From assembly GCA_964016885.1 (NCBI GenBank), contig OZ024744.1, positions 126,294,001 to 126,358,000 of the forward strand: a DNA stretch of 64,000 nt. Reading direction: 5' to 3'. The notes beneath the pieces are model-generated. The model worked only from the letters and a program-made list of their open reading frames with translations. It did no database searches and was not told the origin of the DNA. This DNA comes from Eledone cirrhosa (Eukaryota). Shown here piece after piece: positions 4,939 through 37,271 of the stretch (within the stretch, counting starts at the first letter, position 1; each line of letters begins with the position of its first letter). The position numbers were made by a program, and so were the translations under genes.

Positions 4939-4939
4939 A

Positions 4940-8775: not shown

Positions 8776-8880
8776 ACAGAGTATTCGGTTTATTTTCTTG
8801 ACATATTTCTTTACATATTGTCCAGGCATGCACTTTTTCCATGATTAGTTCTGTTGACGGCCCGCTTTCCAAAATACCTT

Positions 8881-9129: not shown

Positions 9130-9177
<48 letters not shown>

Positions 9178-9327
9178 AACAGTAGAAAGGAAAAAGATTT
9201 TTTCAGTAGAAATTGCTGAAGAGATTCTTTCAGTGTAATTTCAAAACATTAATTTATTTATAAAGTGGATATTTCCACATTTAATAATGGCACTGGGTTC
9301 AGCATTATATACATTGTCAATTGTGGA

Positions 9328-11850: not shown

Positions 11851-12002
11851 CCCAGGGGGTGGGGATTGTGTGTTTACAAATGTCAATATCTCATCTTCTG
11901 GTGAGGATAAAAATCTGACTGGCATGCTCCTCTGACCAATAGGTGTTGAAGTGGTTGTCGGGTAAACGTTAAGACCCTCTGATATACATATATATATATA
12001 TA

Positions 12003-12270
12003 CTAGCAGTGGTACCCGGCGTTGCACGGGATAACGTATTTCGGAACGCGGGCCGCCATCTTCCACTTCAGCCGGTCGCCCTAAAGTGTTGGCTATTCAG
12101 TCTACTTGAGGCCAGTTGGTGAGGGGGGGGGGGTAAAGCTTTCAGTGTGCTACTACCCTCACGGTCAAATAGAAAGGGAGAGGAAGAAAAGTCAGCGTTA
12201 ATATCGTGCTACACGTTTGAAAGGTTGGATGACCTTAGAGTTCACCAGGGTGGGGGGTTCTAAAAGTATC
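12003..12270 (-). mobile_element. Non-autonomous Helitron-like element (3' terminus at 12003)
   Basis: Reverse complement reads CCCGTGCAACGCCGGG-TACCACTG-CTAG|TATATA, the same terminus as 8881-8910. The 5' boundary is uncertain. Confidence 0.7.
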
Positions 12271-12379
12271 TATCTTGGTATTTTATCTTAGAAGTAATCA
12301 TTACAGAGTGTACTGGGTGTATTTTAGTGGGCAGTAATTCCATAAAGAACACAGTATAATCTGTGGACACAAGCCTTGC

Positions 12380-13095
12380 AGTGTGATTACAGGCAGGTTA
12401 ATGGGAAAGATAGATTATATATGTGACATGATGTACATGAGAAGTGAGGACACAGACCACACATGAAATAGATTCCTACAACTGTCAGGGAGGCTCCCTA
12501 GAATTACAGATGACATATTTCAATATCTCGGTGATCAAGTTAGCAGTGGAGGAAGAATCTCTAAAAGTGTAATACCCAGGATAAGGACAGGCTGGAAGAA
12601 GTTTAGAGTACTGTTCCATCTGTTGACAACAAAGGGCTTCTCTCTCAGAATGGAGGCTAGACTGCTTGATACTTATGTGTGGTCTGCAATCTACACCCCA
12701 GCCATGCCCCTTCCACTACCACTCCTTAGCTATTTCTCTCCATTAATACTCCTCACATTTCAAGCAGTTTTCTCATCTCAATGAAAGAAAAATATTGGGC
12801 TCAAGAGAAGTCTTCAGTTATGCCATGGTGTGGCAACCTCCCTAGGGTTGGGCAGAGTGTAAATGAGAGTGAAATTAGGTATGAGAGGGATCAGATGCAG
12901 TATACAAGAGAGTAGATTACATTGGTATGGTCATGTGATGGGTATAAAGGATGACAGCTGTATAAAAATGTGCTGGGCAATCAAAGTTGATGGAAGTTAT
13001 GAAGGCGGAAGACCTAGGATGACCTGGGATGAGGTGATAAAAGATGACTTTGCACAATTGCAACTCTCAAAAACAATGACACAGGATAGAGATCT
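12380..13095 (+). mobile_element. Degenerate RTE-clade LINE 3' fragment
   Basis: ORF 12863: RLHWYGHVM...GRPRMTWDEVIKDD, a typical RTE C-terminus. Confidence 0.75.
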
Positions 13096-13353
13096 TATTT
13101 ATGTTTATTTACGTTTAGCGTAATCGATTTGTTTTCGATTTGTTTCCATATCACCACGCGTTTTATTTCATAGTCATAGTTATCAAGTTAGAAAACAAAT
13201 GAAGTTCAGGGGGCCGACACTACCGACTTTCTTAAAGAAAAACAATTTAACGCGGGTAACTACAAGATAGGCATCAGTAGTAGTAGCTCCCTAAACTGTT
13301 TCCATCCCATTCTCACTCAGGCTACTGTACCTTCAGAACACCCACCTCCACTG

Positions 13354-15693: not shown

Positions 15694-15726
15694 ATGCTTT
15701 CCAGCATAGAGTTACGTCTCTTTATG

Positions 15727-15830
15727 GTCTGAGTTCAAATCACGCCGAGGTTAACTTTGCCTTTCATCCTTACGGGGTCGATAAAATAAAGCACCAGTAA
15801 TGTACTGGGGTCGATTTAATCGACTTTCCC
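15727..15830 (+). mobile_element. tRNA-derived SINE
   Basis: GAGTTCAAAT B-box-like motif plus GCCTTTCATCCTTACGGGGTCGATAAAATAAAGCACCAG core. Related fragments at ~27147 and ~30565. Confidence 0.75.
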
Positions 15831-15876
15831 CTCCTCTGCCAAATGACACACACATGCATGGTTCGGGGGAACCTAC

Positions 15877-15932
<56 letters not shown>

Positions 15933-17091
15933 GTAGGTCACTGGTTGAGTCGGTATTAACCACAGTAACTAAGGTACTCAATACATATTAGATATAGGTG
16001 TCTTTCTAATTGCTGGCCTTGTTCATAAGGTATACACAAGTATGATGTGTGTCTGTTTAACTGTACGTGTGAAAACATCGCGAAATTGCGCCTTTTAATA
16101 TTTGAATATAAACAGTTAAAAAATAATTATTTTAGTAATTTTTAAATATCGATAATGTGTATATAAATATTAGAAATCAATTTAATTAGTTCAGTAACAT
16201 TACTCGGAGTTAAGATAAACCTTCATTTGAAGAAATTCGAGATTTGACCAAATAAATAGATTATGTGATCAATAAAAAAAATATGTATACGCGCTTGAAC
16301 GACGGGTTGCAGACAGTCAGGCATACAGACACATATTTTAAAGCGTGCGACGTTAAAAGTCTTACTCTCTCTCTTTTTAGATAGATAGACTTAATTAAAG
16401 CAGTTTCACTCTCTCTATATTTCATCAGCTCCCTCTCTCTTAAATTGAAAGATTCATTAAGGCTGAAATAATCTAAACAGTAACATCATATTCGCCAGCT
16501 CTAGCTTGCGTCCAGAGATATACACACACATATATATATATTTTTTTTGTTATCGAGTTGAGCTTTGCCAAGCATAGAATTCCAAATTTGACCATCTCCA
16601 CTGAAAATGTTCGTGAAATAGTCTTTAAGAAGCAATTTAATTTTTTCCAACTGAAACTGTAAGTATTTTAAAATTTATTTCAACATGGTCTTAAAAGATT
16701 GTTGGCTTTTTTTAAATTCATAACTATTTACTATGAAATATAAATTATTAAATCCAATTTATTTGATAACCATGATTTGATTTTATAATTACCTGAATCA
16801 CGTTAACATGTATGTATATATATACACACACACGTGTGTGTATATATATATATATATAATAATTGTTTCTACGTTACGCAGTGTATTACTGGTACTGTAT
16901 TTTACGATATTAAATATTAAATATTAACTATTAGATATTAAATATTAAATATTAGATATTAGATATTAAATATTAAATATTAAATATGATATCCCTGAAA
17001 TATATATAATGAAATAAATATGGTTTTATAAATGTAATTTCCATTTGTTTAATATCAAATATATATATATATATATATGTATTTATGTATA

Positions 17092-17163
<72 letters not shown>

Positions 17164-17389
17164 GCAGACACAGACACAGAATATCGTATATATCACACAC
17201 ACACAATTAAGACTTGACGTGTTGCAGACAGCCAGACATACAGAGAGATATTTTAAAGCGTGCGACCTTAAATGCCTTACTCTTTCTCTTATCAAAAGAG
17301 AAAGAGTAATGCTAACACTTACGTCTACTTCACGCTCTCTTGAACCGTTACAGAAATTGCATCACATCTAATTATAACTTTGTACGTTT

Positions 17390-17806
<417 letters not shown>

Positions 17807-20800
17807 TAATAATAATAATGAAATGATTGTGTACAGTGCTCAGGTGCACTACAACTCATCAAAGGTGCATGTATAGTACATAGAATAATGTACAAATGTC
17901 AGGAAAATAAACAGTGTATGAGTCATGATATAATAACAATAACAATAATGAAATATTGTGCACTGCCCAGGTGCACCACAACCCATCAAAAAAGTGCATG
18001 TACAGTACATAGGGCAATGCACAAACATCAGTAAAATGAACAGTGCACACATGTGTGCATGTGTATGGAAGGGGCACATCAGGTGTAGTTTTGGCGTATT
18101 TCGGGAAGCATGAGTGTCTTAAAGGATGCAGTGTCTCGGCAGCTAACAATTGACGCAGGCAGTTTGTTCCATGTTTCAGCAACTCTGAGCGTGAAAAAAT
18201 GTCTGCGAAAGTCATGGGAGCTGTGCTGTTTTCTTATCTTGTAGGCATGTCCACGTGTGTTAGACACATGGAGATCAAAGAGGCGCTCAGGGTTGCAGTT
18301 GGCGAGATGGTTAAAAACTTTGTGGGTATTCACCAAGTCCACTGCCAGATGTCGGAGCTTCAATGAATCCATGCCCAGGGAAGCAAGGCGTTCAGAGTAT
18401 GGTAGGTGTCTGATGGAGGGTATGCGCTTGGTTGCACGTCTCTGAACAGTTTCCAGGAGGTCAATGTTCCGAGCAAGATAGGGGTTCCAGACTGATGATG
18501 CGAATTCCAAGTGTGGTCGCACCATAGCTGTATACAGTTTTAAATAGATGGCTGGAGAGCGGCTAACAAAGGTCTTGCTGAGTGATGCCAAGACACCCTC
18601 GGCCTTCTTGACAATCTTAGAGACATGCTTTGTCCAACGCAAATCGTTGCCGACAGTAATGCCCAGGTCACGTTCACAAGAGGACTTTTTGATGTCAGTG
18701 TTGTGGAGGGAGTATGTGGACGCTGGATTTTTCCTTCCAAAATGCATGGTGGTACACTTGTCCACAGCCAGCTTCAGTTGCCAGTCTGTGATCCATTGCT
18801 GCATTGTGTCCAGGTCTGATTTTAGGAAAGAGTTGTAAATTTCAGGATCAGTCCTTTTGATTTCAAGGTACAGCTTGATGTCATCTGCATATTTTAGTAC
18901 CGTGGCATTCTGTAAGTTGGCATCTATGTCATTAATATATGCCACAAACAAAAGAGGACCAAGAACAGATCCCTGTGGTACACCAGATGACATCTCATAT
19001 GGTGAAGAATGCTGTCCTAGAACCGTGACTACTTTCCTTCGGCTGAGAATGAAGGATTTCAGCCAGTCGAAAAGATCATCCCTCACACCCATTGCAGAGA
19101 GTTTTGCCATAAGTCTTTTGTGTGGCACAGAATTAAAAGCCTTAGCAAAGTCAAGGTAAACAACATCCACCCATGAGCCGCTGTCAGTGATCCGGGTGAT
19201 GTCCTCAAGGAACTCGATAAGCTGATCACAGCAGCTGGAGTTAGGGATAAATCCAAACTGTGAGGGCCGGATGAGGCTGTGAGAGCTCCAGAAGTTCCAA
19301 AGTGTTTCTCTGACACAGGATTCCATCAGTTTGGCCATACAGCTAGTAAGACTGACTGGACGATAGTTGACAGGTGACATGCGGTTGCCCTTTTTGAACA
19401 GGGGAATGACACTGGCAGTTTTCCACTGCTCCGGAGTAGCACCATTGCTGAGACAGTATTGAAAGAAAAAAGAAAGCTGGCGCAAAAGGAAATCCCCGCC
19501 ACGTTTGAGAAGCAGGTATGTCACACCATCAAGACCAGGGGAGGCATAGTTGCGCTTATTCTTAAGGTGACGTCGCAACATTGCAGGTGTAAATTCCATA
19601 GTTGTTATGGAATTTGATGTTAGAGATGGTGGAGATGGTACATTCTGGTTTTCAACAGTAAAAATACTTGCATAGCACTCAGCAATGAGTTCTGCGCATT
19701 CCTTGGGATCGTCAGTGATCTGGCTTGTGTGGGGATTGCGAAGAGGACCAACTGGAGAGTGAGGTCTCTGCTTTGAATGAACATATTTCCAGAACACCTT
19801 ACTGTCAGGATTGGTTGCGATGCACTGTTCAAATTCAAGCACTGCCTTCTTTGTCACTTGCTTGAGATGGTTAGAAGATTTATTCCGCTTTTTTCTGTTG
19901 GCATCTGATCTATGCAGTTTATATTCCCGTTCAGCGTTCCGACGTTCTTTCCTGGCAAGTCGGACTGCTGAAGTTTCCCAGATTGCACTTTTGGGGTGGT
20001 TATTTTTCCGCTTCCGTGGCACTGATGCTGCACACGCTATCCATATTGAGTCCAGGATGCTCTGGAGTATAGAGTTCACATCTCCAGAGTTATACATCTC
20101 ATGCCAGTTTGGGCGCTGTAGCTCAGTGCAGTACAAGTTCCAATCCGCCCTCTTCCAATCAAAGCAAGCAGATTGGAGATGGCTCTGGTTTTTGTTGCTG
20201 CCCTCAAGTGCCAGATTGGCAATGATCATAGCATGATCAGAGTCGCCTAGAGGTTCCTCAGTAGTACAACTGATAACCACTTCAGGAGTAGTGGTGAAGA
20301 TCAGGTCCAAAGTGTTGTCACCTCTTGTTGGAGAGGTGACTACTTGTGACCAGTTTGAGTCCAGCACTAGTTCAAGGAAATCGTTTGCACCCTGTGGCCA
20401 ACGAAAGGTTTCCCAATCGATCTCAGGATGATTGAAGTCACCTGCAATAAACACATAAGTGGCTGTTTTCTTGGGCAGCAACTCTGAGGATATCGCAAAG
20501 CTGTGTGTCCTGATGGTAGTTTGGGGGGCGATAAACAACACCAAGCAGAAGTGTTGACATGGTCATACGTATGTCACAGAAAAAAACTTCTTCCTGTGAT
20601 TCGTTCAAATCAACGCAAGGAATTACCGAAAAGTTTGAACGAACGTAGACCATCACACCACCACCACGGCGGTTAATGCGGTCCTTGCGGAAAAGGTTGT
20701 ACCCAGTAATGGTGAAAACCCCATCACAGAGTAAGGAATGTGCCCATGTTTCCGTGACTGTGATGAAGTCAGGGTCGATGCTTCTGACGTAGGATTCGAA

Positions 20801-21056
20801 CAGATGTATCTTGTTGCATAAACTGCGAGCATTTAAGGACAACAATTTGTACCCTGCTCGCAGTCTATGATGGTGTGTAGAGGGTGGCAGGTTGTTCTGG
20901 TTTAGTTTCCCAGAGTTGTAGCAGTTTTTACATTGCCAGTTATTGTGGGTAGATCACACTCAGACCAGCTGGTATCTCTCTTCCACGTTTCACCCGCCTT
21001 GACAAACCTCCAGATCTGCCCATCATCACGCAGACTGAAACTTTCATCTTGTGCTG
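17807..21056 (-). pseudogene. CR1-clade LINE, 5'-truncated, ORF2 split by a 1-nt insertion (copy A)
   Basis: ORFs 20438-20845 and 18079-20544 together equal the 921-aa ORF of copy B. TTGGGCAG at ~20472 versus TTGGCAG in copy B. (ATT)n tail at ~17807-17820. Confidence 0.92.
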
Positions 21057-21119
21057 TATATATATATATATACACACGTGTGTGTGTATTTATGTATATA
21101 TATATATATACACACACAC

Positions 21120-21161
<42 letters not shown>

Positions 21162-21276
21162 GTGTGTGTGTGTATATATATTTATATATATATACACACA
21201 CGTGTGTGTATATATATATATATATATACACGTGTGTGTGTATTTATATATATATATATATACACACACACGTGTG

Positions 21277-21307
<31 letters not shown>

Positions 21308-21329
21308 GTGTGTGTATATATATATATCT

Positions 21330-21810
21330 GTCTCTCTCCCTGTCTCTCACTCTCCCTCTATCCCCCCTCTCTCTCTCTGTCTCTCTCTCCCCCCCCCTCT
21401 CTCTCTCTAGTAGTAGAGAGAGACAAAGAGAGAGAGATATAAACGTATAACCCTAACCAAACCCTAACCCAACCCTAACCCCAACCCTAACCCTAACCTA
21501 ACCCTAACCCATCTCTCTCTCTCTCTCACCCCCTCTCTCTCTCTCTAGTAGTAGAGAGAGAGACAAAGAGAGAGAGAGATATAAACGTATAACCCTAACC
21601 CAACCCTAACCTCTCTCTCTCTTCTCTCTCTCTCTCTCCCCTCTCTCTCTCTATTCCCCCCTCTCTATTTCCCCCCCCCTCTCTCTCTAGTAGTAGAGAG
21701 AGAGACAGAGAGAGAGAGAGAGATATAAACGTATAACCCTAACCCAACCCTAACCCTAACCCAACCCCAACCCTAACCCATCTCTCTCTCTCTCTCTCTC
21801 TCTCTCTTTG
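21330..21810. repeat. Composite repeat x3: (CT)n-TAGTAGTA-(GA)n-TATAAACGTAT-(AACCCT)n
   Basis: TATAAACGTATAACCCTAACC at ~21438, ~21580 and ~21724. Confidence 0.85.
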
Positions 21811-21959
21811 TTTTTAACATTGTTTTGTTTTTCTTTTCTTTTCTTATTCAGATGACAAACGGCAGAGGATACAACAGAAGAAAAGAACAAAGATAATTAT
21901 TATTATTATTACTATTATTATTTGTTTTATTATAATCAAAATATGCTGTTAGTTAGATC

Positions 21960-22510
21960 TGCATTGCGTACATTTTATATAATTTATGCCAGTTCCTTTT
22001 CTGCATATCGAACATGGCCATTTCCCTGACGGAATAGAGTTTTGTCCTCTTTCGTGACACAAAGTACAGCCAGCGGCATCATTGCGGACAGACTTAATCC
22101 CGAATTGCACTGACACACTGCCTCGCAATACGGAACACCGCACGTCTTTGATCTTCTTCCCGTCGATCAGCCTCCTTGCCATGCTAAGTACACCTGACGT
22201 CTAGCTTCTCTCTTAGCGGCGGCTTTATATTCTTCTCTACTCCCACTAATTTTCCAAGCATTCCATGCTAGCCTTTAGTCTCCAATGGCCCGATCTACCG
22301 TGCTGTCCCACCACCATGTCACTCTCTGTCTGGTTGGAACTCTGATCCAGCCACAAGTTTAATCAGTAGCCTGCAATAAGTTGTCACATAAGAAAATCGA
22401 GTTCTCATGTATGTCATACGACTGTGAATCGTCTTCTTTTTCGTCATACACATATTGAAGGGCTTTCCTAAATTTCTATTTTAGTGAAATCTCTTTTAGC
22501 TTCCAGACCT
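21960..22510 (-). mobile_element. RTE-clade LINE fragments
   Basis: Minus-strand SGKWPCSICRKG and WWDS-like linker remnants. An endonuclease remnant LLEFCDASVLTICKTNFHK lies at 22757 (+). Confidence 0.6.
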
Positions 22511-22999
22511 TTCTTTTTTCCACATCTTCCTGTATGTCTCAATCATACCTGGAGCTGTCCAACATGACCATTGAAATCCCCTGCTAGCATAACGATGTCT
22601 CCGTCCTGTCATTGTGGCTGTTTGTAAAAATTGCTTGTAAATGAAGTCTTTCTTTTCTTTACCTAGCAGAAGCAATTAACACTAACCCAACTGTAACACT
22701 AACCCTAACACTAACTTATGCAGGCCTAGGTAAAGACAAGAAAGATAAAACAAGGAGTGATGCTTCTTGAATTTTGTGATGCAAGTGTTTTAACCATTTG
22801 CAAAACCAACTTCCACAAACCTGCCTCACTGCCGCCTAATAACCTACAAATCAGGCAAGCACAGAAGCCGGATTTCTCGGTAGTTAGGCAGCGAGACAGA
22901 CAGATGGGGTGTGAAGTACCAGGGTGTGCCCCGGGGAGGAATGTTTCCCACAGCGTGGGTTGGTTGTTGGTGATGTCTCGGTTATCTTGAGACGGAGTG

Positions 23000-23172
23000 A
23001 GACGTGCAGGAATACTCTCACGGAATCGCCAAATGAGGTTTATTTTTCAACATAGTCCCTGGAATGAAACAATGTGGTTATTAAGAAGAATTGAAATTAA
23101 TGTAAGATTTCACAGATCTATGATCAATCCTTCACAGTCAGCTTACAAAGTTTTCAGCCAAACCTTGTGTAT
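23000..23172 (-). mobile_element. Mariner-derived MITE (diverged copy of 11091-11292)
   Basis: GAGGTTTATTTTTCAACATAGTCCCTGGAA...TTTTCAGCCAAACCTTG is the reverse complement of the 11091 element. Confidence 0.65.
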
Positions 23173-23384
23173 TTCCAACATTTCAAACCCTATCTAGGAC
23201 TACATTATCTAATGTACAGTACAGTAGTTAGTATTAGTGGCTATCAGACATAGTGTATCTAAATGCAACATTTTTAACATTGTTTTTTTTTTCTTTTCTT
23301 TTCTTTTCTTATTCAGATGACAGACGGCAGAGGATACAATAGAAGAAAAGAACAATGATAATTATTATTATTATTATTGTTGTT

Positions 23385-23781
23385 ATTCCTTGAATCTCAG
23401 TCATTGATGTTGGTTAACTGGAAAGTCCGTTGGAATGAATATCAAGCCACTACCTGCAGCCTCAGATATTCAGGACGTATCGGAGGGTTCTTGCTGTTCC
23501 AAGCAAGCATGCCTTTTGAAGCGTTCCAAAAAGCGTGAAGGGGCCGATTTTCTTTAACCATCCCTGGAAACTTTTGGAGATGGACAAAAAACTGGAACAC
23601 AATAGACCTGACCTGGTGGTTGTGGACAAAGAAAAAAGATCGTGTCTGATTGTGGATGTGGCCTGCCCGTTCAACACGAGAGTGCAAGAGAAGGAGAGGG
23701 AGAAAATTAACCGATACCAGGACCTAAAGTGGGAGGTGAAAAGGATTTGGAACTGCCATGAAGTCAAAGTGATCCCGATTG

Positions 23782-23783
<2 letters not shown>
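23385..23783 (-). mobile_element. RLE-type (R4/Dong-like) non-LTR retrotransposon 3' fragment with 5' inversion, inside an (ATT)n tract
   Basis: Plus strand HNRPDLVVVDKEKRSCLIVDVACP...EKINRYQDL...KVIPI (PD-D restriction-like endonuclease). Minus strand SKSFQGWLKKIG...LQKACLLGTARTLR* C-terminus. Confidence 0.8.
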
Positions 23784-23822
<39 letters not shown>

Positions 23823-24227
23823 TATTATTTGTTTTATTATAATCAAAATATGCTGTTAGTTAGATCTGCATTGTGTACATTTTATATAATTTATGCCAGT
23901 TCCTTTTCTACATATCGAACATGGCCATTTCCCTGACGGAATAGAGTTTTGTCCTCTTTTCTACTCATCAACACTCATTCGTGACACAAAGTACAGCCAG
24001 CGGCATCATTGCGGACAGACTTAATCCTGATTTGCACTGACACACTGCCTCGCAATACGGAACACCGCACGTCTTTGATCTTCTTCCCGTCGATCAGCCT
24101 CCTTGCCATGCAAAGTACACCTGACGTCTAGCTTCTCTCTTAGCGGCGGCGGCTGTATATTCTTCTCTACTCCCACTAATTTTCCAAGCATTCCATGCTA
24201 GTCTTTAGTCTCCAATGGCCCGATCTA

Positions 24228-24380
24228 CAGTTTCTGTCTCAACTCGTCTATGCTTGGTCGTTCCCGCACATTGACATTGCACATCCAACGGAGCATGCTT
24301 GCTTCATTTCTCTCCAGCCGTCGCATGTCCTCTGCAGTTGCTGCCCGTGTCTCACTACCATGCAGCATCGCGCATCTAAA
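24228..24380 (-). mobile_element. RTE-clade LINE fragment
   Basis: AMLHGSET...RRLERNEASMLRWMCNV. Confidence 0.7.
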
Positions 24381-24409
24381 CCTGGCCCTTACCCTAACCC
24401 CAACCTCTT

Positions 24410-25258
24410 TGGTTTTCGTTTTCTCGACGGCTAGCCGCATTTCGTGATCCGCCTTTCGATTGCGCTTCCGTCGCGGCAAAAGAATTGCCTTTCCAGACCG
24501 CCGTCGCCCGACCGGACCCATGATAGAAGACGTTCGTTACCGTTGGAGCAACGCAAATTACTCCTCGGTTGACGCCAAAAACGAACGCCTTCCCGCCTCG
24601 CGCCGCCTTCTCCTCGCCGACCCTCAGCCTCGACGATTAGCCACTTTCCGTCACAGCAGTAGATACGCGTCCGTCGTAATAGCCGTCATTTTAACGCAGG
24701 AGAAACGCCTAATTGCCCTGCACCGCGTTTGACGGCGATCTACGACGGCGACGATGCGCGCACTCTTCCTTGCTGCGACGAAGGTTTCGGCTTTTCGTCG
24801 TGGACCCGGTCAGGTCATGCCGCTGACCTCGCGTTACGGCGACGCGAGAAGACGTTCGTTACCGCTGGAGCAACGCAAATTACTCCTCGGTTGACGCCAA
24901 AAACGAACGCCTCGCGCCGCCGCTTCCTCCTCGGCCTCGACGATTAGCCGCTTTCCGTCACAGCAGTAGATACGCGTCCATCGTAATAGCCGTCATTTTA
25001 ACGCAGGAGAAACGCCTTGACGACGATATACGACGGGTCAACGACGCGCGCACTCTTTCTGCTGCGACGAAGGTTTTGGCTTTTCGTTGTGGACCCGGTC
25101 GGGTCATGCCTCTGACCTCGCGTTGCGTCGCCACCGCCGCGGCGGGCTTGGGTTTAGCCGTAGCTACCCTCGTTTTGCCAACGGCGACGCGAGAAGACGT
25201 TCGTTACCGCTGGAGCAACGCAAATTACTCCTCGGATGAGGCCAAAAACGAACGCTGA
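24410..25258 (+). repeat. Orphan GC-rich repeat block homologous to the 18S-upstream ETS-like region
   Basis: GAAGACGTTCGTTACCGCTGGAGCAACGCAAATTACTCCTCGG x3, shared with 31415-32191. No 18S follows. Confidence 0.85.
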
Positions 25259-25334
25259 AGAGATATTGTCCATGGATATCGGGAATTTTACCCGCCCTAG
25301 ATAGATAGATAGATAGGGATGTATGTATGTATGT

Positions 25335-25392
<58 letters not shown>

Positions 25393-25771
25393 GTATGTAT
25401 CTTTCTCATTCTCTCTGTATGTATGTATGTATGTATATATATATAATTATATATTTATAGACATCCTGAAAGCTTTTTAAATGTCTGAGAGATTGGCTAA
25501 ATATGTTTTGCAGGTATGACCAGTAAGAGAGAGGTAAGTTATTTCAAAACAATTCTTTGACCATTATTTTAAGGTACTATCTCAGTGTATTTTTAAATTG
25601 ACCTCTTGATAGGATGAAATGACCTGTATAATTTTTTTCATATTTAGATGGAATAGAAGAAAAACAAGAAAAATGAAATGAATTCAAACAGAAAATATAC
25701 ACCAATGCCAATGGAGGTATGATTTCAGTTTAATCTTAACCTAATGACCACTTTACAGAGTGTACTGGATA

Positions 25772-25840
<69 letters not shown>

Positions 25841-26289
25841 AGGAAGCTCCAACCGTTAAGGTTGTCTTTCCATTTATTAATATATTGTGTATTTACTCCA
25901 CTAAACTGTTGAGTGCTTTATATCAGTTATAAAAAAATTTCAGCTTGTTGAATCCCAAAATAGTTGTTGAAACAGCCACAGCTCAGCCGTCGGGGTCCTG
26001 AATATTTATCATATATATATACGTATGAGTGTGTGTGTTTTGAGAATTAATAATTATATAAACAAGTTTGTAATGAACAATTTATTTCTTATCAAAACTG
26101 TATAAACATGATATTATTTACAGTAAGAATAACAATAATAATGATGGTTTCTAGTAAAGGTGGAAGGCCAGTAATTTGGGGGAGGGGAAAGTTGATTAAA
26201 TCGAAGAGAGAAAGAAAGAAAAAACAGAACGGGAAGGAGAGGGGATGGCAAGAGGTCCGGTGTCGCAGGAGAGAGGGGAGGGTGGTTGA

Positions 26290-26785
26290 GCTTTGAGTCT
26301 AGGGCAAGAGGGCAGAAATGCTGCGCCCCACGGATAAGACGGCAAAAATATTCTCGCGGACGATGGCCAGAGATACCCAATGCAACAACCACCCAACCTC
26401 GCGGTGTTCCCTCCTCAGATGGGCTGCTGACTCTCCGATCTTTTGGAGGAGCTCGGCAGTACAAGGTCCAAGTACTCCTGGGGTCTCGACGTTGACTGGT
26501 GCAGAGAGGAAGTGGCCGGACAATCCTCGGTATTTGTTTATTTTACGTTCTTCTGCGAGGTGGGCTGCGATGCCGGGGTTTGTGACCGAAACGACTTGGA
26601 AACGAAGTTGTAGGCGGAGATTGTGTCGTAGCTGGTGGTGTCCCAGATGAGGGACCTACGTCCTTCGAATGGGAAGAGAGTGATTCCGTCGGGGCGCTTG
26701 CCATCTCCGGGACCTGTTGGCCCCAGTTGTGATGGGAAGCCAGCTGCGTCCAGGCTTCTTCTCAATATGTCGTTGACAACGACGT
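26290..26785 (-). mobile_element. CRE-like non-LTR retrotransposon RLE-domain fragment
   Basis: DGKRPDGITLFPF..GRRSLIWDTT and VETPGVLGP...VSLAIVREN remnants. Confidence 0.72.
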
Positions 26786-27330
26786 GTATCTATTCAATAA
26801 TTATTTGAATATTGAAATTTTAGGTTTAACTACCTTTTAAACCAAATACATTAAGAAAGGCATGACCAACACCACATCATTTTTATTTCTATTTTGAAAG
26901 TAGGTTTATAAGTATTAAATTTCAGTAGATTCTTATATCCTTCATGGTGGTCTGGTGGGAGATACGAGAGATGGTGGAGGTTCTGGTCTGGGGTTCAATC
27001 CTGCTCAGGAGATACTCTAAGGGGGTTCATACTAAACTTCTTCAGTGTTTCTTATCTCTAGAGACAAATATATATACATAAGGTAATCTGGTAAAGTTGT
27101 TAGAACATCACATAGAATTCTTTGTAGTATTTTTTCCAGTTCTTCAATCTGAGTTCAACTTTACTTTTCTTCCATTCGGGGTTGATAATAACGTACCAGT
27201 CAAATACTAGGGGTTAATTCTTCCTCTATATCTCTTTCTCACTCTCTGTCTGTTTTATTAAGACCTGGAGAGGTGATGTACTCTACCAGGTTTTATAATG
27301 AGTGATGGGGTCATACCTGCCTGCTACACC

Positions 27331-27655
27331 TCTGTGTACTAAGTGTAGCATATTATATCCTTGTTCAGGGCCTTCCTGACATTACTGTGTACTAAGGGTA
27401 GCATTTTATATCCTTGTTCAGGGCCATCTTAACATTGCTGTGTACTAAGTGTAGCATATTATATCCTTGTTCGGGGCCTTCCTGACATTAGTGTGTACTG
27501 AGTGTAGATTTTAACATCCTTGTTCTGGGCCTTCCTAACATTACTGTGTACTGAGTGTAGATTTTAACATCTTTGTTCAGAGCCTTCCTTACATTACTGT
27601 GTACTAAGTGTAGCATTTCATATACTTGTTCTGGGCCTTCCTAACGTTACTGTGG
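27331..27655. repeat. 53-bp minisatellite (~6 copies)
   Basis: ATTACTGTGTACT variants at 27381, 27434, 27487, 27540, 27593. Confidence 0.9.
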
Positions 27656-27659
27656 AAAT

Positions 27660-28430
27660 AGTAGTTTATATCCAATATGTAATATAGATATGGATTCTAC
27701 AGGACTAAAACTCATTAATATGAGGGGTATTAGTAGATTATATGCCATATTTAATAGAGAAATGGCTTCTACAAGACTAAAACTCATTAATATGAGGGGT
27801 ATTACAGTTTATATGCCATATTTAATACAGAAATGGCTTCTAAAGGACTAGAACTCTTTAAATTGAATAAAATAGTAGTATATATCCTATGTTTAATACA
27901 GAAATGCCTTCTAAAGGACTCATTAATATGAGGGTATTAGTAGATTATATAACATATTTAATACAGAAATGGCTTTTAAATTCAGGGACTCGTTAATTTG
28001 ATGGAAATAGTAGTGTCTATGCAATATTTAATACAGAAATAGCTTCTACAGGACTAAAACTAATTAATATGAGGGGTATTAGTAGTATATGTGCCATATT
28101 TAATACAGAGATGGCTTCTAAATGGAGGTATCTCATTAATTCGATTGAAATGGTAGTGTATATGCAATATTTAATACAGAAATAGCTTCTACAAGAATAA
28201 AACTCATTAATATGAAGGTTATTATTACATTATATGCCATATTTAATACAGAAATCGGTTCTAAAGGACTAGAACTCTTTAATTCAAATCAAATAGTAGT
28301 ATAAAGCAATATTTACTACAGAAATGGCTTCTACAAGACTAAAAATCCTTAATATGAGGGGTATTGTTAGATTATATACCATATTTAATACAGAAATGGC
28401 TTCTAAATGAAGAAATCTCTTTAATTCGAT
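27660..28430. repeat. ~71-bp AT-rich minisatellite (~11 copies)
   Basis: ATATTTAATACAGAAATGGCTTCTA recurring at ~71-bp spacing (27761, 27832, 27903...). Confidence 0.9.
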
Positions 28431-29089
28431 AGTAATAGTAATAATAATAATAGTAATAGTAATAATACAGCCAATTTTCCACGCAATACTTTTAGTTAGC
28501 ACCCCGAACGCATAATTGGGAATATAATCACTTATTTCCTAATGTTTGTTGAGTGAGTTGGGAAAAAAAACTTGGGAAATATATTTTCAGGGTCTCAAAA
28601 TCTTAAAGAGAAAAAAAAGTCCTGTGGAAGGTAGCAAAACAATTAGGAAGAAAATGGTTTGAAGTTGGTTGGTGAGTATAAGATTACAGTATCTTGTTGA
28701 TTTCTATAAAGTTTACTTTTAACTGAATTGGTAAAAATGGATAAATTAGAAGACACAATATAATAACTAATATTGTCTTCTAAAACAGGGAATAAAAATA
28801 TGTTGGTGTATTGGGGTGGGGTGGGGGGGGTAAACATGTGAGTTAATGGGAATGTTTTTGTTTGTTTTTATTGAAACATATTCAATCTACAGATAGGTTG
28901 TTATAGTTATTTAGTCTCGGGTCTGCCATTATCTGCAGATTTATAATTGAGGGGTGTTCCAGGTGTGACCACCCTACATTATTCCTAGAGATTGTTACTC
29001 CTTCATTCTTCAGTCATCTTGGTCTTCTTATGAGATGGTGGTGTAGTCTTATTTATTGTTAAGGTTATGGTCTTCCTTTGTCCACACTC

Positions 29090-29131
<42 letters not shown>

Positions 29132-29359
29132 AAAGGCTTCCTTCTCTGGAAAAAGATGATTTAATATTCACAACCATCTGTCTAATTGTTTTCTGATGAG
29201 AATAAAGTTAATCTTGCTTGTATGTCTACCTGATCAAATGACTGGCTGATATCTTGAAGTCATTTACACCACAGAACTGTAGGAGTCTTGATCCCTCAAG
29301 CCATACCTCTAGCCATCATGTACTCCAAAAGAGTCTCACCTTGGTGCTACTCAACATGT

Positions 29360-30160
29360 CCATTAAATTTAGCAGCAAGGATGCCCTCTTCTTAGTGAGA
29401 GACAACTACAAGAGAGGTTCTTAGAGAAGAATAAGCCACTATAGTTAACTTTTGTTGACATAGAGAACCCCGATCTGTCATCTGGTGGTCCTTAAGGAAA
29501 CTAGGTGTAGGGGAATGGCTTGTGAGGACAGTGCAAGCTATGTACAAGGGTGCTGTCAGTAAAGTGAGAGGAGGAATTCCAGAAACAAAGTAGGTGTACA
29601 TCAGGGTTCGGTCCTCAGTCCGCTCTTGTTCATTATAGTCCTCCCTCCCTCCCTCCCTCCCTCCCTCCAAGCCATAACAGAGGAGGAGTAGTTTAAGACT
29701 GGATGCCCATGGGAACTTCTCTATGCTGACGATCTGGTTCTTATAGCAGAATCAGTAGAGGAGCTAGCTAGAGAATAAATTCTGGCTATGGAAACAGCAG
29801 TAGTTGGAATCAAGAAGACTGAGAGTGAACCTAGCTAAGACAAAAGTGTTTATAAGTAGAAGAGAGGACAAAACTCTGATTCTGTCAGGGAAATGGCCAT
29901 GTTCGATATGTAGGAAAGGAGTTGGCATAAATTCTATGAAATGTAGTACGCAATGCAGATCTTGGCTACACAAGAGATGTAGTGGGATAGCAGGAAAACT
30001 GACTGACAGGTAGGGAGAAATACGTATGCAGTAGATGTACAGGGAAATTTGACAGAGATTGCAGTGATAGACACATTTTTCAAATGCAGGTGGGATCTAT
30101 AGAGGGAGTTGATAGCTTCTGATACCTAGGTGATCAGATTAGTAAGGGAGGAGGGTGATA
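29360..30160 (+). mobile_element. Degenerate RTE-clade RT fragment
   Basis: GVHQGSVLSPLLF, PWELLYADDL (CTCTATGCTGACGATCTG), LRVNLAKTKV and SGKWPCSICRKGVG. Confidence 0.82.
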
Positions 30161-30673
30161 TAAAATATATTGTTATCATGACTGTCTTTATTATTTAAAT
30201 TACCTCTGTCTATTTACAGATTTTACAGAGTGTACTGGGTGCTTTTATGATGGGAGCAGCAACTCTATACGATTTTACAGAGTGTACTTGGTGCTTTTAT
30301 CATGGCACATGGCAGCAGCAGCAACTACGATTTTACAGAGTGTACTTGGTGCTTTTTACTCTGACATCAGCACTGAGGAAGTTGTCATATTTTCAGCTAA
30401 ATTAATGAGTAGAAAAACCAAGTTTCTGCTACAAAAAATTCTCAGATTCAAGGGAGACATTCAGTTTAAGTATGGTATACTGTCACTAAGGCAGCAAATT
30501 GGCAGAGTCGCTAGAATATCAGATAGCATTCTTTACATTATTTGTTTCAGCTCTCTGTTCTCTCAATTCAAATCCTGCTCAGGTCAACTTTGCCTTTCAT
30601 CCATACAAAATAGATTAATAAAAGTACCAGTGTATTACTGGGGTCAATTCTTCTTCTAACTCTTCTGCACTTC

Positions 30674-30767
<94 letters not shown>

Positions 30768-30989
30768 GCTTCTTTAGAACACATCTGCTGTATTCAGACC
30801 TGGAGCGGAGATGGGCTCCACCAAGTTTTAAAAATTGCCCTTTAAGCGCTGTATGTCAATATGGTGCCCCTATGATTCCCTCCCTCAGGAGTTATGGGAC
30901 CATAGATACTGTCAATTGTAAAGAATAACAGAGATATTCAGTGCTAGTGTGGTGTTCTGTCAGTTGTGGAGATTGATGAATCTAAACAG

Positions 30990-31190
30990 AAATATCAACA
31001 GCACTTTTCATTTCTGAGTAACACATTTGTTACCAAGTGCTGCATGGCTGGAATGAAAATCAGTGCTGTGAAAACCAAGACATTCATCCTCTCAAGGAAG
31101 CTTGTGCAGTGCACTCTACATGTAAATGGAGTCCCACTGAAGCAGGTAGAAAAGTTCATGTATCTCGAAGCTGTGTTCACGAGTGATGAC
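30990..31190 (+). mobile_element. LINE RT fragment
   Basis: GMKISAVKTKT...LKQVEKFMYL. Confidence 0.6.
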
Positions 31191-31329
31191 AGAGACGGCA
31201 AAGGCACAACACACAACAGAAGAAAAGAACAATGACAATTATTATTATTATTATTATTATTATTATTTGTTTTATTAGTTTTATTATAATAAAAATTGTG
31301 CTGTTAGTTTGCTTGCTATACCATCATGT

Positions 31330-31417
31330 ACCCTAACCCTAAACCTAACCCCAACTCCAACTCTGACCCTAAACCTAACCCCAACCCCAACCCTAACCCT
31401 AACCCTAACCCTAACCC
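31330..31417 (-). repeat. Interstitial telomere-type repeat (CCCTAA)n, partly degenerate
   Basis: ACCCTAACCCTAAACCTAACCCCAA...CCCTAACCCTAACCC abutting the ETS-like block. Confidence 0.85.
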
Positions 31418-32191
31418 ACGATAGAAGACGTTCGTTACCGCTGGAGCAACGCAAATTACTCCTCGGTTGACGCCAAAAACGAACGCCTTCTCGACGGCTA
31501 GCCGCATTTCGTGATCCGCCTTTCGATTGCGCTTCCGTCGCGGAAAAAGAATTGCCTTTATAGGCCGCCGCCGCCGCCCGACCGGACCCACGATAGAAGA
31601 CGTTCGTTACCGCTGGAGCAACGCAAATTACTCCTCGGTTGACGCCAAAAACGAACGCCTTCTCGACGGCTAGCCGCATTTCGTGATCCGCCTTTCGATT
31701 GCGCTTCCGTCGCGGAAAAAGAATTGCCTTTATAGGCCGCCGCCGCCGCCCGACCGGACCCACGATAGAAGACGTTCGTTACCGCTGGAGCAACGCAAAT
31801 TACTCCTCGGTTGACGCCAAAAACGAACGCCTTCCGGTTCGGGCGACGTAAAAGTCTGTAGCCTTTTCGCCGATCCTCGACGATTATCCGCCTTCCGAAC
31901 AACCGCCTTTCCGCCGTCACAGCAGTAGGTACTCGTCCGTCGTAATAGCCGTCATTTTAATGCAGGAGAAACGCCTAAATGCACTGCGATTGACGACGAT
32001 CTACGACGCGCTTACTCTTCCTTGCTGCGACGAAGGTTTCGTTCGGCTTTTCGTCGTGGACCCGGTCAGGTCATGCCTCTGATCTCGCGTTGCGTCGTTA
32101 CCGCTGGAGCAACGCAAATTACTCCTCGTTTAACGCCAACATCGAACGCGCTTCGGTTCTCGGTCGTCGTTGTTTTGTTTCGTGCGGAAGA
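31415..32191 (+). other. 5' ETS/promoter-like GC-rich region with 172-bp tandem repeats
   Basis: CCCACGATAGAAGACG at 31415, 31587, 31759. Lies directly upstream of the 18S 5' end; the ETS call is positional inference. Confidence 0.6.
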
Positions 32192-32375
32192 TACCTGGGT
32201 GATCCTGCCAGTAGTCATATGCTTGTCTCAAAGCTTAAGCCATGCAAGTGGAAGTTCATGCCGTAAACGAAAATGGTGAAACCGCGAATGGCTCAGGAAC
32301 CGGATCTAATCCTCGGGACCGTATTCCTCACCGCGAGGAGAGGATAACTGTGGCAATTCTAGAGCTAATACATGC
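32192..32375 (+). pseudogene. 18S rRNA 5'-terminal fragment
   Basis: TACCTGGGTGATCCTGCCAGTAGTCATATGCTTGTCTCAAAG, GTGAAACCGCGAATGGCTCA and GGATAACTGTGGCAATTCTAGAGCTAATACATGC, collinear with the eukaryotic SSU 5' end. Confidence 0.93.
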
Positions 32376-35233
32376 AATTGAGATCGGAGAGGGAGCGATC
32401 CGTCTGCTTGATTCCGATAACGAACGAGACATTCGTATCCGAAAGAACGTTTGTCGGTGGTAGTAGCAAATATTCGAACGAGACATTCGTATGCGAAAGA
32501 ACGTTTGTCGGTGGTAGTAGCAAATATTCGAACGAGACATTCGTATGCGAAAGAACGTTTGTCTGGAGGTGGCGATCCATGCCCGGTGGATAGTTGGTTC
32601 CGGGTTTTACTATGATTGTTGCAAAACAGAAACTTAAAGGGATTGACAGAATTTGCGATTCCGGAGAGGGGGCGATCCGTCTGCTTGATTCCGATAACGA
32701 ACGAGACATTCGTATCCGAAAGAACGTTTGTCTGGAAACTGGTGAGTCAGTGAGTCGAAAAAAAAAATATCTCGGTGGTAGTAGCAAATATTCGAACGAG
32801 ACATTCGTATGCGAAAGAACGTTTGTCGGTGGTAGTAGCAAATATTCGAACGAGACATTCGTATGCGAAAGAACGTTTGTCGGTGGTAGTAGCAAATATT
32901 CGAACGAGACATTCGTAGGCGAAAGAAAAATATCTCGGTGGTAGTAGCAAATATTCGAACGAGACATTCGTATTCGAAAGAACGTTTGTCTGGAAGTTGC
33001 GATCCATGCCCGGTGGATAGTTGGTTCCGGGTTTTACTATGATTGTTGCAAAACAGAAACTTAAAGGGATTGACAGAATTTGCGATTCCGGAGAGGGGGC
33101 GATCCGTCTGCTTGATTCCGATAACGAACGAGACATTCGTATCCGAAAGAACGTTTGTCTGGAAACTGGTGAGTCAGTGAGTCGAAAAAAAAAATATCTC
33201 GGTGGTAGTAGCAAATATTCGAACGAGACATTCGTATGCGAAAGAACGTTTGTCGGTGGTAGTAGCAAATATTCGAACGAGACATTCGTATGCGAAAGAA
33301 CGTTTGTCGGTGGTAGTAGCAAATATTCGAACGAGACATTCGTATGCGAAAGAACGTTTGTCTGGAAGTGGCGATCCATGCCCGGTGGATAGTTGGTTCC
33401 GGGTTTTACTATGATTGTTGCAAAACAGAAACTTAAAGGGATTGACAGAATTTGCGATTCCGGAGAGAGGGCGATCCGTCTGCTTGATTCCGATAACGAA
33501 CGAGACATTCGTATCCGAGAGAACGTTTGTCTGGAAACTGGTGAGTCAGTGAGTCGAAAAAAAAATATCTCGGTGGTAGTAGCAAATATTCGAACGAGAC
33601 ATTCGTATGCGAAAGAACGTTTGTCGGTGGTAGTAGCAAATATTCGAACGAGACATTCGTAGGCGAAAGAAAAATATCTCGGTGGTAGTAGCAAATATTC
33701 GAACGAGACATTCGTATGCGAAAGAACGTTTGTCTAGAAGTGGCGATCCATGCTCGGTGGATAGTTGGTTCCGGGTTTTACTATGATTGTTGCAAAACAG
33801 AAACTTAAAGGGATTGACAGAATTTGCGATTCCGGAGAGGGGGCGATCCGTCTGCTTGATTCCGATAACGAACGAGACATTCGTATCCGAAAGAACGTTT
33901 GTCTGGAAACTGGTGAGTCAGTGAGTCGAAAAAAAAATATCTCGGTGGTAGTAGCAAATATTCGTATGCGAAAGAAAAGATCTCGGTGGTAGTAGCAAAT
34001 ATTCGAACGAGACATTCGTAGGCGAAAGAAAAATATCTCGGTGGTAGTAGCAAATATTCGAACGAGACATTCGTATTCGAAAGAACGTTTGTCTGGAAGT
34101 TGCGATCCATGCCCGGTGGATAGTTGGTTCCGGGCTTTACTATGATTGTTGCAAAACAGAAACTTAAAGGGATTGACAGAATTTGCGATTCCGGAGAGGG
34201 GGCGATCCGTCTGCTTGATTTCGATAACGAACGAGACATTCGTATCCGAAAGAACGTTTGTCTGGAAACTGGTGAGTCAGTGAGTCGAAAAAAAAAATAT
34301 CTCGGTGGTAGTAGCAAATATTCGAACGAGACATTCGTATGCGAAAGAACGTTTGTCGGTGGTAGTAGCAAATATTCGAACGAGACATTCGTATGCGAAA
34401 GAACGTTTGTCGGTGGTAGTAGCAAATATTCGAACGAGACATTCGTATGCGAAAGAACGTTTGTCGGTGGTAGTAGCAAATATTCGAACGAGACATTCGT
34501 ATGCGAAAGAACGTTTGTCTGGAAGTGGCGATCCATGCCCGGTGGATAGTTGGTTCCGGGTTTTACTATGATTGTTGCAAAACAGAAACTTAAAGGGATT
34601 GACAGAATTTGCGATTCCAGAGAGAGGGCGATCCGTCTGCTTGATTCCGATAACGAACGAGACATTCGTATCCGAAAGAACGTTTGTCTGGAAACTGGTG
34701 AGTCAGTGAGTCGAAAAAAAAATATCTCGGTGGTAGTAGCAAATATTCGAACGAGACATTCGTATGCGAAAGAACGTTTGTCTGGAAGTGGCGATCCATG
34801 CTCGGTGGATAGTTGGTTCCGGGTTTTACTATGATTGTTGCAAAACAGAAACTTAAAGGGATTGACAGAATTTGCGATTCCGGAGAGGGGGCGATCCGTC
34901 TGCTTGATTCCGATAACGAACGAGACATTCGTATCCGAAAGAACGTTTGTCTGGAAACTGGTGAGTCAGTGAGTCGAAAAAAAAATATCTCGGTGGTAGT
35001 AGCAAATATTCGTATGCGAAAGAAAAGATCTCGGTGGTAGTAGCAAATATTCGAACGAGACATTCGTATGCGAAAGAAAAATATCTCGGTGGTAGTAGCA
35101 AATATTCGAACGAGACATTCGTATTCGAAAGAACGTTTGTCTGGAAGTTGCGATCCATGCCCGGTGGATAGTTGGTTCCGGGCTTTACTATGATTGTTGC
35201 AAAACAGAAACTTAAAGGAATTGACAGAATTTT
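32376..35233 (+). repeat. Tandem array of chimeric 18S/28S rRNA-derived monomers, copy B (complete)
   Basis: Monomer starts at 32594, 33021, 33393, 33765, 34124, 34550, 34813, 35172; same motifs as 1-2856. Confidence 0.92.
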
Positions 35234-35257
35234 CGAATCGACATCAACTCGGCTACG

Positions 35258-35609
35258 GCTATCCCGTCGAGTACGAGAGTATCGCGGGATCAGAGCAACG
35301 GTTTGCTAGGCTGCCTCTGAGCGATAACGGCTGAACGCCTCCTCTAAGCCGGAACCCTAGCCGGACCCGAGTTGTTTTTCGACAAGCGTCTCGACCTTCT
35401 TAAGGCCCATGCCTTAGTTTGGCGATTGCCGTCCGTTCGCCGACGGCGGCAGCGTCAGCGGAAATGCCATTCTGTGACGACTACGACGATTCGTCGTCGT
35501 CGTCGTCCATTCGATTTCCTGAAAGAGATAGAGACTAAAGTGATCAAATTGTTCGGAGTTACGTGCTTAGTAGAGCAGCTACCACACTGCAATCTATTGA
35601 GAGTTTTCT
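35258..35609 (+). pseudogene. 28S rRNA 3'-terminal fragment, copy B
   Basis: Same sequence as 2881-3232; AGTACGAGAG at 35270. Confidence 0.85.
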
Positions 35610-36040
35610 GACGAACGATACAATCCGCCCACGTGGCGCCAGAAAGGGAGAAGAAAAGAAAAGTTAGACGCCGCCGATCGATCGGTTCGTTGTTTTACGT
35701 GTACACAGCTTGTGTGTGTGTCTGTATGTGATACAAGCCGCCTATCCGTCTTCCAAGTAAGTTTTGTGTGTAGACTGCGGAAAGAAATCCAATCCGCCGT
35801 CTAGGCGGTTCTGCCGCCGACCCATACTTTTGCGAGTCGCTCCCGGGAAAGACAGGCGGCAAGACGGCGTGTATACACGACGCCTTCCGTCTTCCGCCTC
35901 GAACCCGGGCAAACGTTCCTTTATTCGTCCACGCCTTCCCGCTTCGATCGCGAGAAAGTAATCAATCTGTTTTGTGTGTGTGTCTGTGTGTGATACAAAT
36001 TTGTTTTCTTAATTTGATAACCATGAATTGTTTCAACACC

Positions 36041-36056
36041 GGCCCTTTTAAGGGCC
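36041..36056 (+). promoter_or_regulatory. Orphan histone mRNA-type 3' stem-loop, copy B
   Basis: GGCCCTTTTAAGGGCC followed by AC. Confidence 0.6.
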
Positions 36057-37041
36057 ACTTATATTTTCAATAATCAGTTTAAATGGGTTGCACCGTAGCC
36101 ACTTGGTAATACACTGCAAATCTCCCGTCAATCTATGAAGGTTTTGTAGTAGATTAGATCAAAACACAATCAGCAAGACAGTAATGGAATGAATAATATA
36201 AACATTTGTTTATAATTAAAGCCTTAAGATGTCCCTCCCTCCCTTCCTTCCTTCCTTCCTTCCTTCCTTCCTTCCTTCCTTCCTTACGATATACACTTTA
36301 ATAACATTGAAACTTATTTAATAAGTTTAAATTTTAAACACTTTTTATTCAGACGTACCGCGATAAGTAACTAGATATGTTCTAACGAATAATCCGCGAT
36401 GTGGCGAGGATTACCGCGATAGGAAATTAGATACGTTCCAAAGAAATATCCGCGAAAAGTGAACCGCGATATAGCGGGTTCACCAGCCAGTGTATTACTG
36501 GTACTTTATTTTATCGACCCCCATAAGGATGAAAGGCAAAGTTAACTGTGCAATAACAAAGGGAGATAACCTCGTCTTTTTTTTTTTACGGAGTTATTTC
36601 CCTTTAAATTTTATCTATTACTTATGATGATACAATTTAATCAGTTCTTAGCTGTCGAGACACTGCATCCTTTAAAACCTCCATGGAACAAGCTACCTGC
36701 AACAGTTGTTAGCTGTCGAGACACTGCATCTTTTAAAACCTCCATGGAACAAACTACCTGCATCAGTTGTTAGGGTCTGAGTTCAAATCACGCCGAGGAG
36801 GTTAACTTTGCCTTTCATCCTTACGGGGTCGGTCGGAAAACGAACCATTCCCGGTTCGCTTTCGAAGCGGGTTTCCGAAAACAGCGCTTCTCTCGACCGG
36901 GCCCGTCGTCCGCTCGGCGGTGGTTTTCATCGTCCCAGGCACGGCTAACAGGCGGAGACGGGACAAACGCGCGTGTTCCTTTTTTTATCAGCCGCAGCGC
37001 CGTTCGTATATATGCTTAGGTTGTTTTTTTTTTAAATATCC

Positions 37042-37271
37042 TAAGTTAAGTTGGGGCTAAGTTAAGTTGGGGCTAAGTTAAGTTGAGGTTAAGTTGAGTT
37101 GGGGTTAAGTTAAGTGGGGGTTAAGTTAAGCTGGGGTTAAGTTAAGTTGAGGTTAAGTTAAGTTGGGGTTAAGTCAAGTTGGGGTTAAGTTAAGTTGGGG
37201 TTAAGTTAGGTTGGGGTTAAGTTAGGTTGGGGTTAAGTTAAGTTGGGGTTAAGTTAGGTTGCGGTTAAGTT
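37042..37271 (+). repeat. G-rich telomere-like ~16-bp repeat, copy B
   Basis: (GGGGTTAAGTTAAGTT)n variants. Confidence 0.93.

Follow-up and report, generated by a model that had tools for sequence, protein, structure and literature searches.

The 64,000-nucleotide (nt) window, the whole stretch of DNA analyzed here, holds two copies of a repeat of about 32 to 35 kb. The interior of one copy is a tandem array of short monomers placed between the two ends of an rRNA gene. The features, in window coordinates, are as follows:

2870..35240, + strand: full macro-repeat unit, 32.4 kb here
24413..25255, + strand: second 5'ETS-derived fragment, preceded by a short telomere-like word
31330..31417, + strand: (TAACCC)n repeats of telomere type, sharing a 4-nt word with the 5'ETS at the point of fusion
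31414..32191, + strand: 5'ETS-derived sequence with 172-bp repeats and internal deletions, about 830 nt of ETS being absent
32192..32382, + strand: first ~190 nt of 18S, from alignment to host rDNA
32383..35229, + strand: mosaic array of 263-bp basic monomers with expansions of a 54-bp sub-repeat
35241..35635, + strand: 3' end of 28S, ~400 nt, with 8% substitutions (Rfam LSU, 61.6 bits)
35636..35966, + strand: shortened 3'ETS/IGS-derived sequence
35997..36069, + strand: histone stem-loop, one arm of a dispersed inverted-repeat element
36836..37042, + strand: separate 28S expansion-segment fragment

The order telomere repeats, 5'ETS, 18S start, array, 28S end, and shortened 3'ETS/IGS is that of an rDNA unit in which the array occupies a deletion of about 10 kb. 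The 5.8S gene is among the missing parts, and instead of a complete collinear 18S-5.8S-28S unit only the first ~190 nt of 18S and the last ~400 nt of 28S are present. Over the block 32148-32382, identity to host rDNA is 94.5%, and the flanks of the array differ from canonical rDNA by 3 to 8% substitutions. In the 28S flank, two hairpins of 26 and 33 nt (predicted at -15.9 and -18.7 kcal/mol) have been removed whole. The fusion of telomere-type repeats to the 5'ETS looks like the product that telomerase healing of a broken rDNA end would leave.

The remnant lacks the putative Pol I start: its ETS begins about 220 nt further downstream. The motif TATATAGGG, taken here as the Pol I start of invertebrates, has 18 copies within 40 kb of the host rDNA contig C12, in canonical spacer repeats. 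It was absent from the 64-kb window, as was any homology to the surroundings of the last canonical copy. A pattern for the proximal Pol I start had 15 matches in the genome and none on contig C28, which carries the main cluster of the macro-repeat. Thus, the spacer or promoter repeats with a Pol I start that belong to a functional 45S unit were not found. A Pol I-driven long noncoding RNA with a promoter of its own was considered and rejected, since the repeats upstream of the array are 5'ETS and not promoter. The histone stem-loop was likewise discarded as a transcript 3' end, being a passenger that forms one half of a dispersed element with inverted repeats. This element has two inverted histone 3' stem-loops as arms and is dense on contig C18 (L063, L066, L068, L069, L072-L074); one arm is similar to the 3' end of an H4 gene (L067).

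Within the array, monomers stand head to tail and are homologous to host rDNA, as in an rDNA-derived satellite; lengths of 317 to 372 bp are the most frequent. The outermost pieces, first and last, retain ancestral letters that inner copies lack, as is expected of array edges. The folding of the monomer RNA showed no extra stability over shuffled sequences (z = -0.04). Long stop-free frames are present on both strands, but they merely translate the repeat, and a coding role was rejected.

To identify donors, host rDNA was retrieved through a 5.8S search of the genome. Three loci were taken and contig C12 was annotated (18S of 2876 nt, 5.8S, and 28S); donor coordinates below refer to the joined C12 stretch. 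All four units checked (on C12, C4, and C25) carry an insert of 1.16 to 1.24 kb in 28S, at the R2 site. They are therefore probably minor, inactive copies. Their alleles agree with the high-depth 28S contigs of sequencing runs X1 and X14, and the units are therefore usable as a reference. In the C12 copy of the insert (L026:4971-6208), the longest stop-free frame is at most 137 aa, and judged from this sequence the insert looks like a nonautonomous R2 derivative.

Aligned to host rDNA with word size 7, the monomer showed seven pieces, all in sense orientation, whose donors are 18S (four), 28S (two), and ITS1 (one); together they span 204 of the 263 nt. In the window copy they lie as follows:

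32392..32430, + strand: P1, 18S 3' major domain; donor 18S 9115-9153, 38/39
32432..32450, + strand: P2; donor ITS1 10238-10256, 19/19
32454..32489, + strand: P3; donor 28S 13353-13391, 38/39 (35/36 in the window copy)
32567..32587, + strand: P4; donor 28S 12663-12683, 19/21
32590..32649, + strand: P5 and P5b, two 18S pieces with a 6-nt shared word at their join; donors 18S 8916-8973 (82%, including an exact 23-mer) and 18S 9049-9059 (11/11)
32656..32673, + strand: P6, 18S 5' domain; donor 18S 7648-7665, 17/18
32728..32768, + strand: monomer spacer, without significant rDNA source

The first-pass annotation, made from the letters of the window, had described the monomer as a scrambled patchwork of rRNA motifs, and this was borne out. 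The order of the pieces includes several backward jumps relative to rDNA, and no collinear alignment to the host rDNA was obtained. Exact matches of at least 12 nt to host rDNA cover 108 nt in sense and 0 nt in antisense. In 1000 dinucleotide shuffles of the monomer the mean coverage was 2.8 nt and the maximum 36, and a 19-mer match was seen in 0/1000. The assignment of three short words to the 18S central domain, in contrast, did not hold: at these positions host 18S has another sequence, and ITS1 matches the stretch exactly. The ITS1 word of P2 was found in all 15 ITS1 matches listed, some of which are overlapping loci and one of which has a mismatch.

About 59 nt of the monomer lie outside the seven pieces. 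An origin of the spacer from inverted ITS1 was tried and rejected (its alignment scored 27.1, and the best of 1242 other windows reached 27.5), as was an origin of the short spacer variant from any rDNA site (score 25, against a shuffle mean of 23 and maximum of 31). An 11-nt inverted ITS1 word adjoins P2.

The exact words of the pieces were present in host rDNA in 6/6 cases and in 0/103 rDNA loci of other eukaryotes. In addition, a 10-nt word shared by 18S and 28S requires the host-type 28S allele, which is absent from the eight commonest variants of the 103 loci. Judged from these host-specific alleles, the patchwork therefore arose within the host lineage.

Five joins of the monomer fall on words shared by the two donors, of 5, 10, 4, 6, and 7 nt, as had been proposed from the window; an unbroken GGAGC lies at 32392, and host 18S and 28S both contain CGAACGAGAC. 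For about 20,000 random site pairs, the probability of a shared word was 0.025 for at least 4 nt and 0.0009 for at least 7 nt, and 10 nt was never reached. The 4-nt join rests on one assumed substitution and the 7-nt join on an assumed internal deletion. The remaining joins adjoin sequence outside the identified pieces. Thus, the monomer combines several nonadjacent donors, seven pieces in all, with microhomologies of 4 to 10 nt at five joins, the pattern of a template-switch chimera.

We compared the pieces with 103 eukaryote rDNA loci. P3 was excluded from this comparison because the loci had been retrieved with it. Five of the six unselected pieces fall in the top 3 to 21% of pre-rRNA windows by conservation. 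A hand-calculated binomial gave about 0.002, a value that is optimistic because the pieces are match defined, P5 and P5b are neighbors, and 59 nt have no donor. The claim that the pieces are conserved cores was thus correct as a bias, but not for every piece, since P2 is ITS1.

These observations bear on how the monomer arose. The reading we favor, if only tentatively, is a deleted rDNA unit that acquired its seven-piece patchwork in one event by reverse transcriptase hopping on pre-rRNA, followed by neutral amplification. An rDNA unit would have lost its interior, together with its normal spacer and likely Pol I start, and a single event would have patched the break. During this patching, a reverse transcriptase, perhaps of the R2 type or another cellular enzyme, would have hopped between fragments of pre-rRNA serving as template. 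Unequal exchange may then have expanded the patchwork, giving a satellite inside a macrosatellite, an amplification that was probably neutral and without selected function.

Reverse transcriptase jumping is favored because of the conserved-core bias, the all-sense orientation of the pieces, and the two precise hairpin deletions. The bias supports an RNA template, since a DNA template offers no reason for it. All donors, ITS1 included, lie inside the transcribed region. The R2-site inserts suggest that R2 is active in host rDNA. The R2 reverse transcriptase is described as jumping between templates via microhomology, although the jumps as described are end to end and with nontemplated bases and not by internal annealing over 5 to 10 nt (PMC4117753). 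The mosaic would resemble such jumping in being one continuous sequence over separate templates joined by microhomology, and the enzyme acts in rDNA; it differs from the in vitro, end-to-end reaction of that account in containing no R2 sequence, and the R2 site lies in the deleted part (PMC4117753).

Alternatively, serial microhomology-mediated template switches or deletions at the DNA level (MMBIR, FoSTeS, or polymerase theta type) in a decaying rDNA cluster, again followed by neutral amplification, could have produced the monomer. Microhomology at the joins fits this mechanism, every donor lies within the deleted interval, and the 11-nt inverted ITS1 word beside P2 points the same way. The macro-unit also contains other same-strand rDNA scraps and the telomere-fused ETS, which are typical of a decayed cluster. 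The frame around the array looks DNA derived, because its flanks include IGS-like sequence some 2 kb beyond the end of 28S and an ETS fused to telomere repeats. The all-sense orientation and the hairpin skips fit DNA as well, since a head-to-tail array keeps orientation and single-stranded DNA skips hairpins. Templated insertions at deletion junctions, by MMBIR, FoSTeS, or polymerase theta, fill a deletion with short local pieces joined by microhomology. They are usually of mixed orientation and have no reason to favor rRNA cores. The mosaic is like them in being a chain of short microhomology-joined pieces in a deletion, and unlike them in being all sense and biased to rRNA cores. A DNA origin leaves this bias unexplained, the single inverted candidate did not reach significance, and serial random deletions would not leave pieces of 11 to 50 nt time after time. 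We consider a DNA origin somewhat unlikely.

Under either template, the patchwork was amplified after its assembly, as the first-pass annotation had supposed: tandem monomers are present in 59 assembled macro-units. The exact 5' junction of the array occurs 59 times in the assembly, 43 times on C28, once on C18, and 15 times on unplaced contigs, and one inner monomer junction has 959 genome copies (about 16 per unit over 59 units). The first 100 of the 959 matches listed are on C18 and C28 only. The canonical 18S pattern, with 22 matches in the genome, has none on C28. The C28 cluster extends from 124.72 to 126.45 Mb with a median unit spacing of 37.8 kb (a ~38-kb macro-repeat). Assembly gaps of 200 N flank it on either side. 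The repeat is thus tandem at two levels, monomers within arrays and macro-units within the cluster. It is amplified and homogenized apart from functional units, as a satellite is, within a cluster bounded by gaps. Dispersed copies like those of a SINE or retroposon were not found, the units being on C28, C18, and unplaced contigs.

We compared 22 units (20 fetched units, the window, and the C18 copy). Array length was 0.73 to 8.6 kb in 20 and above 8.5 kb in 2. Over the 530 nt upstream of the array, 528 to 530 positions are the same as in the window in 18/21 units, and the other 3 have small indels. Downstream, 997 to 1000 of 1000 positions are the same in 16 of the 17 units measured; the C18 copy is rearranged. 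Because the flanks differ by 3 to 8% from canonical rDNA yet are near-identical among units, the element is, judged by this divergence, old but homogenized. In run X1, contigs of the derived flanks have depths of 4062 to 4107, and 28S contigs with canonical alleles have depths of 4128 to 4247 (contig depth, not copy number). From these depths there is a hint that many more macro-units than the assembled ones are collapsed in the assembly.

The element is probably functionless, neutral satellite DNA, because it has no putative Pol I start, its array length varies, it folds like shuffled sequence, and its pieces carry recurrent substitutions. Among 323 monomers, substitutions seen at least twice occur at 17 to 21 of 183 piece positions and at 0 of 62 spacer positions; 4 of the 21 sites come from misalignment of one deletion variant, some are CpG related, and indels were not counted. 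Counting any minor allele, the numbers were 31 in pieces and 7 in spacers (P = 0.32). No sign of purifying selection on the pieces was seen among these monomers, and their divergence is similar to that of the flanks. In run X14, a 289-nt monomer contig spans the junctions. This contig and the high copy number may leave room for function.

The kind of run X14 is off record and its contigs are unstranded; it looks RNA-like because its contig set is small and its 28S depth high. The contig is therefore a hint that the array is transcribed, although DNA carry-over could give the same contig. The derived 3' flank and the IGS repeats are without cover in the X14 contigs, but holes in contigs prove nothing. 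None of the 24 runs containing the monomer was listed as an RNA run. A fuller scenario can be built on such transcription, in which a germ-line rDNA break was patched by a reverse-transcribed concatemer of pre-rRNA fragments, which was then amplified to a dose matching that of true rRNA genes. Its transcripts would now adjust ribosome biogenesis, either as a multivalent RNA mimicking rRNA or by giving rise to small RNAs directed against rRNA. We regard this scenario as improbable.

The first-pass annotation had suggested selection as multivalent binding sites for snoRNAs or ribosome biogenesis factors, and this part of its interpretation was not supported. It is highly doubtful that selection keeps a transcribed array as a decoy or scaffold that binds many snoRNPs or ribosome-assembly factors at once. 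The core bias, the near-identity of flanks between units, and the X14 contig would fit such a role. Four to five of the six core pieces contain a mapped 2'-O-methylation site common to plant and human, and P3 contains three, the equivalents of the plant Cm1447, Am1459, and Gm1460, which are given as U24 targets (PMC8583080). Plant sites and their human equivalents, as given in Table 1 of that source (PMC8583080), were placed on host rRNA through proxy loci. Those 18S sites near positions 1219-1330 map differently between proxy loci, so claims on individual sites there are soft. The enrichment of these plant and human sites over conservation-matched windows was weak and depended on the proxy (P = 0.04 to 0.50 in eight tests). 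A selected role is also at odds with the recurrent substitutions within pieces, compared with none in spacers, with the missing Pol I start, and with the lack of a diverged orthologue among the four runs examined. The patchwork, microhomology, and amplification of the first interpretation therefore stand without snoRNA-site selection; P4, the deleted rDNA frame, and the ~38-kb macro-repeat had been overlooked.

A related possibility is that the macro-repeat is transcribed from the opposite strand, or from both, and supplies small RNAs antisense to the rRNA cores, which would modulate rRNA synthesis or silence rDNA units. Each unit would supply about 16 copies of each core, the cluster is TE rich and heterochromatin-like, and the per-contig depth of derived alleles in X1 is close to that of canonical 28S alleles. 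Against this stands the absence of any sign of constraint on the pieces, and we judge an antisense source very unlikely.

Monomer words are also contained in runs X4-X20, which bear many organism labels. In X4 and X5, labeled as other organisms, a monomer contig is identical to common host alleles, and X5 contains host-type 28S at a depth of about 4 alongside foreign 28S ends. This fits trace contamination or a mixed sample in X5, and the signal of both runs fits trace carry-over of a high-copy repeat. No cross-species conservation of the element was seen among the 4 of 24 runs examined, and the junction pattern had 0 matches in JGI metagenomes. Chimeras of rRNA are frequent library artifacts, and the cluster has 200-N gaps on both sides, but a mosaic made by assembly or library preparation is extremely improbable given 959 copies of one junction, higher-order patterns specific to units, and junction-spanning contigs in 4/4 runs examined, from 3 studies (X1 may be the source sample).

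Several known systems share parts of this architecture. Like the tomato IGS-derived repeat, an rDNA-derived satellite DNA, the mosaic would be a tandem repeat that grew from a decaying rDNA unit and was amplified and homogenized apart from functional genes (PMC2679016). As described there, IGS sub-repeats gave rise to the tomato repeat and the coding sequence was eliminated, whereas the mosaic has 18S, ITS1, and 28S donors, scrambled and framed by the two ends of the gene (PMC2679016). Displaced rDNA pseudogenes are also nonfunctional remnants outside working arrays, but in the account consulted they are degraded near-full-length units and small scattered strings, whereas the mosaic is shuffled, internally amplified, and homogenized over dozens of units (PMC5381670). 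SINE28 and other rDNA-bearing retroposons likewise turned rRNA sequence into a new repeat family, probably via RNA; they are dispersed with one rRNA fragment, and the mosaic is tandem with seven donors (PMC10946416). The available text of this 2024 review describes no multi-donor mosaic (PMC10946416), and in open papers we found no account of the element, or of any mosaic satellite drawn from several rRNA donors. It is apparently an undescribed rDNA-derived satellite, grown in an rDNA pseudogene, whose monomer combines gene cores from several donors in one chimera.

Even if neutral, the element preserves a clear record of template switching among several donors of rRNA sequence that became fixed in a germ line, with a satellite monomer assembled from seven scraps instead of one duplicated locus. 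Should it be transcribed and bound, it would represent a new type of regulator that mimics rRNA. In practical work with this host, near-exact 18S and 28S core words lie outside true rDNA in hundreds to thousands of copies and can bias rDNA FISH, estimates of copy number, the filtering of rRNA reads, and depletion with probes.

The macro-unit has further contents. A LINE on the - strand (18079-20953) has an open frame of 826 aa with RVT_1 and endonuclease Pfam matches, and the start of its endonuclease lies in another frame, i.e., it is frameshifted. A 1584-bp repeat at 4940-8768 and 37273-45853, with inverted arms of about 0.7 to 1.1 kb and 196-bp sub-repeats, differs in copy number between macro-units. 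Telomere-like tracts lie inside the macro-unit at 21448-21780, 37042-37272, and 24390-24412; they suggest a subtelomeric history, though the cluster sits 10 Mb from the contig end. An interstitial telomere block is located at C28:126507327-126508650, about 32 kb past the right-hand cluster gap.
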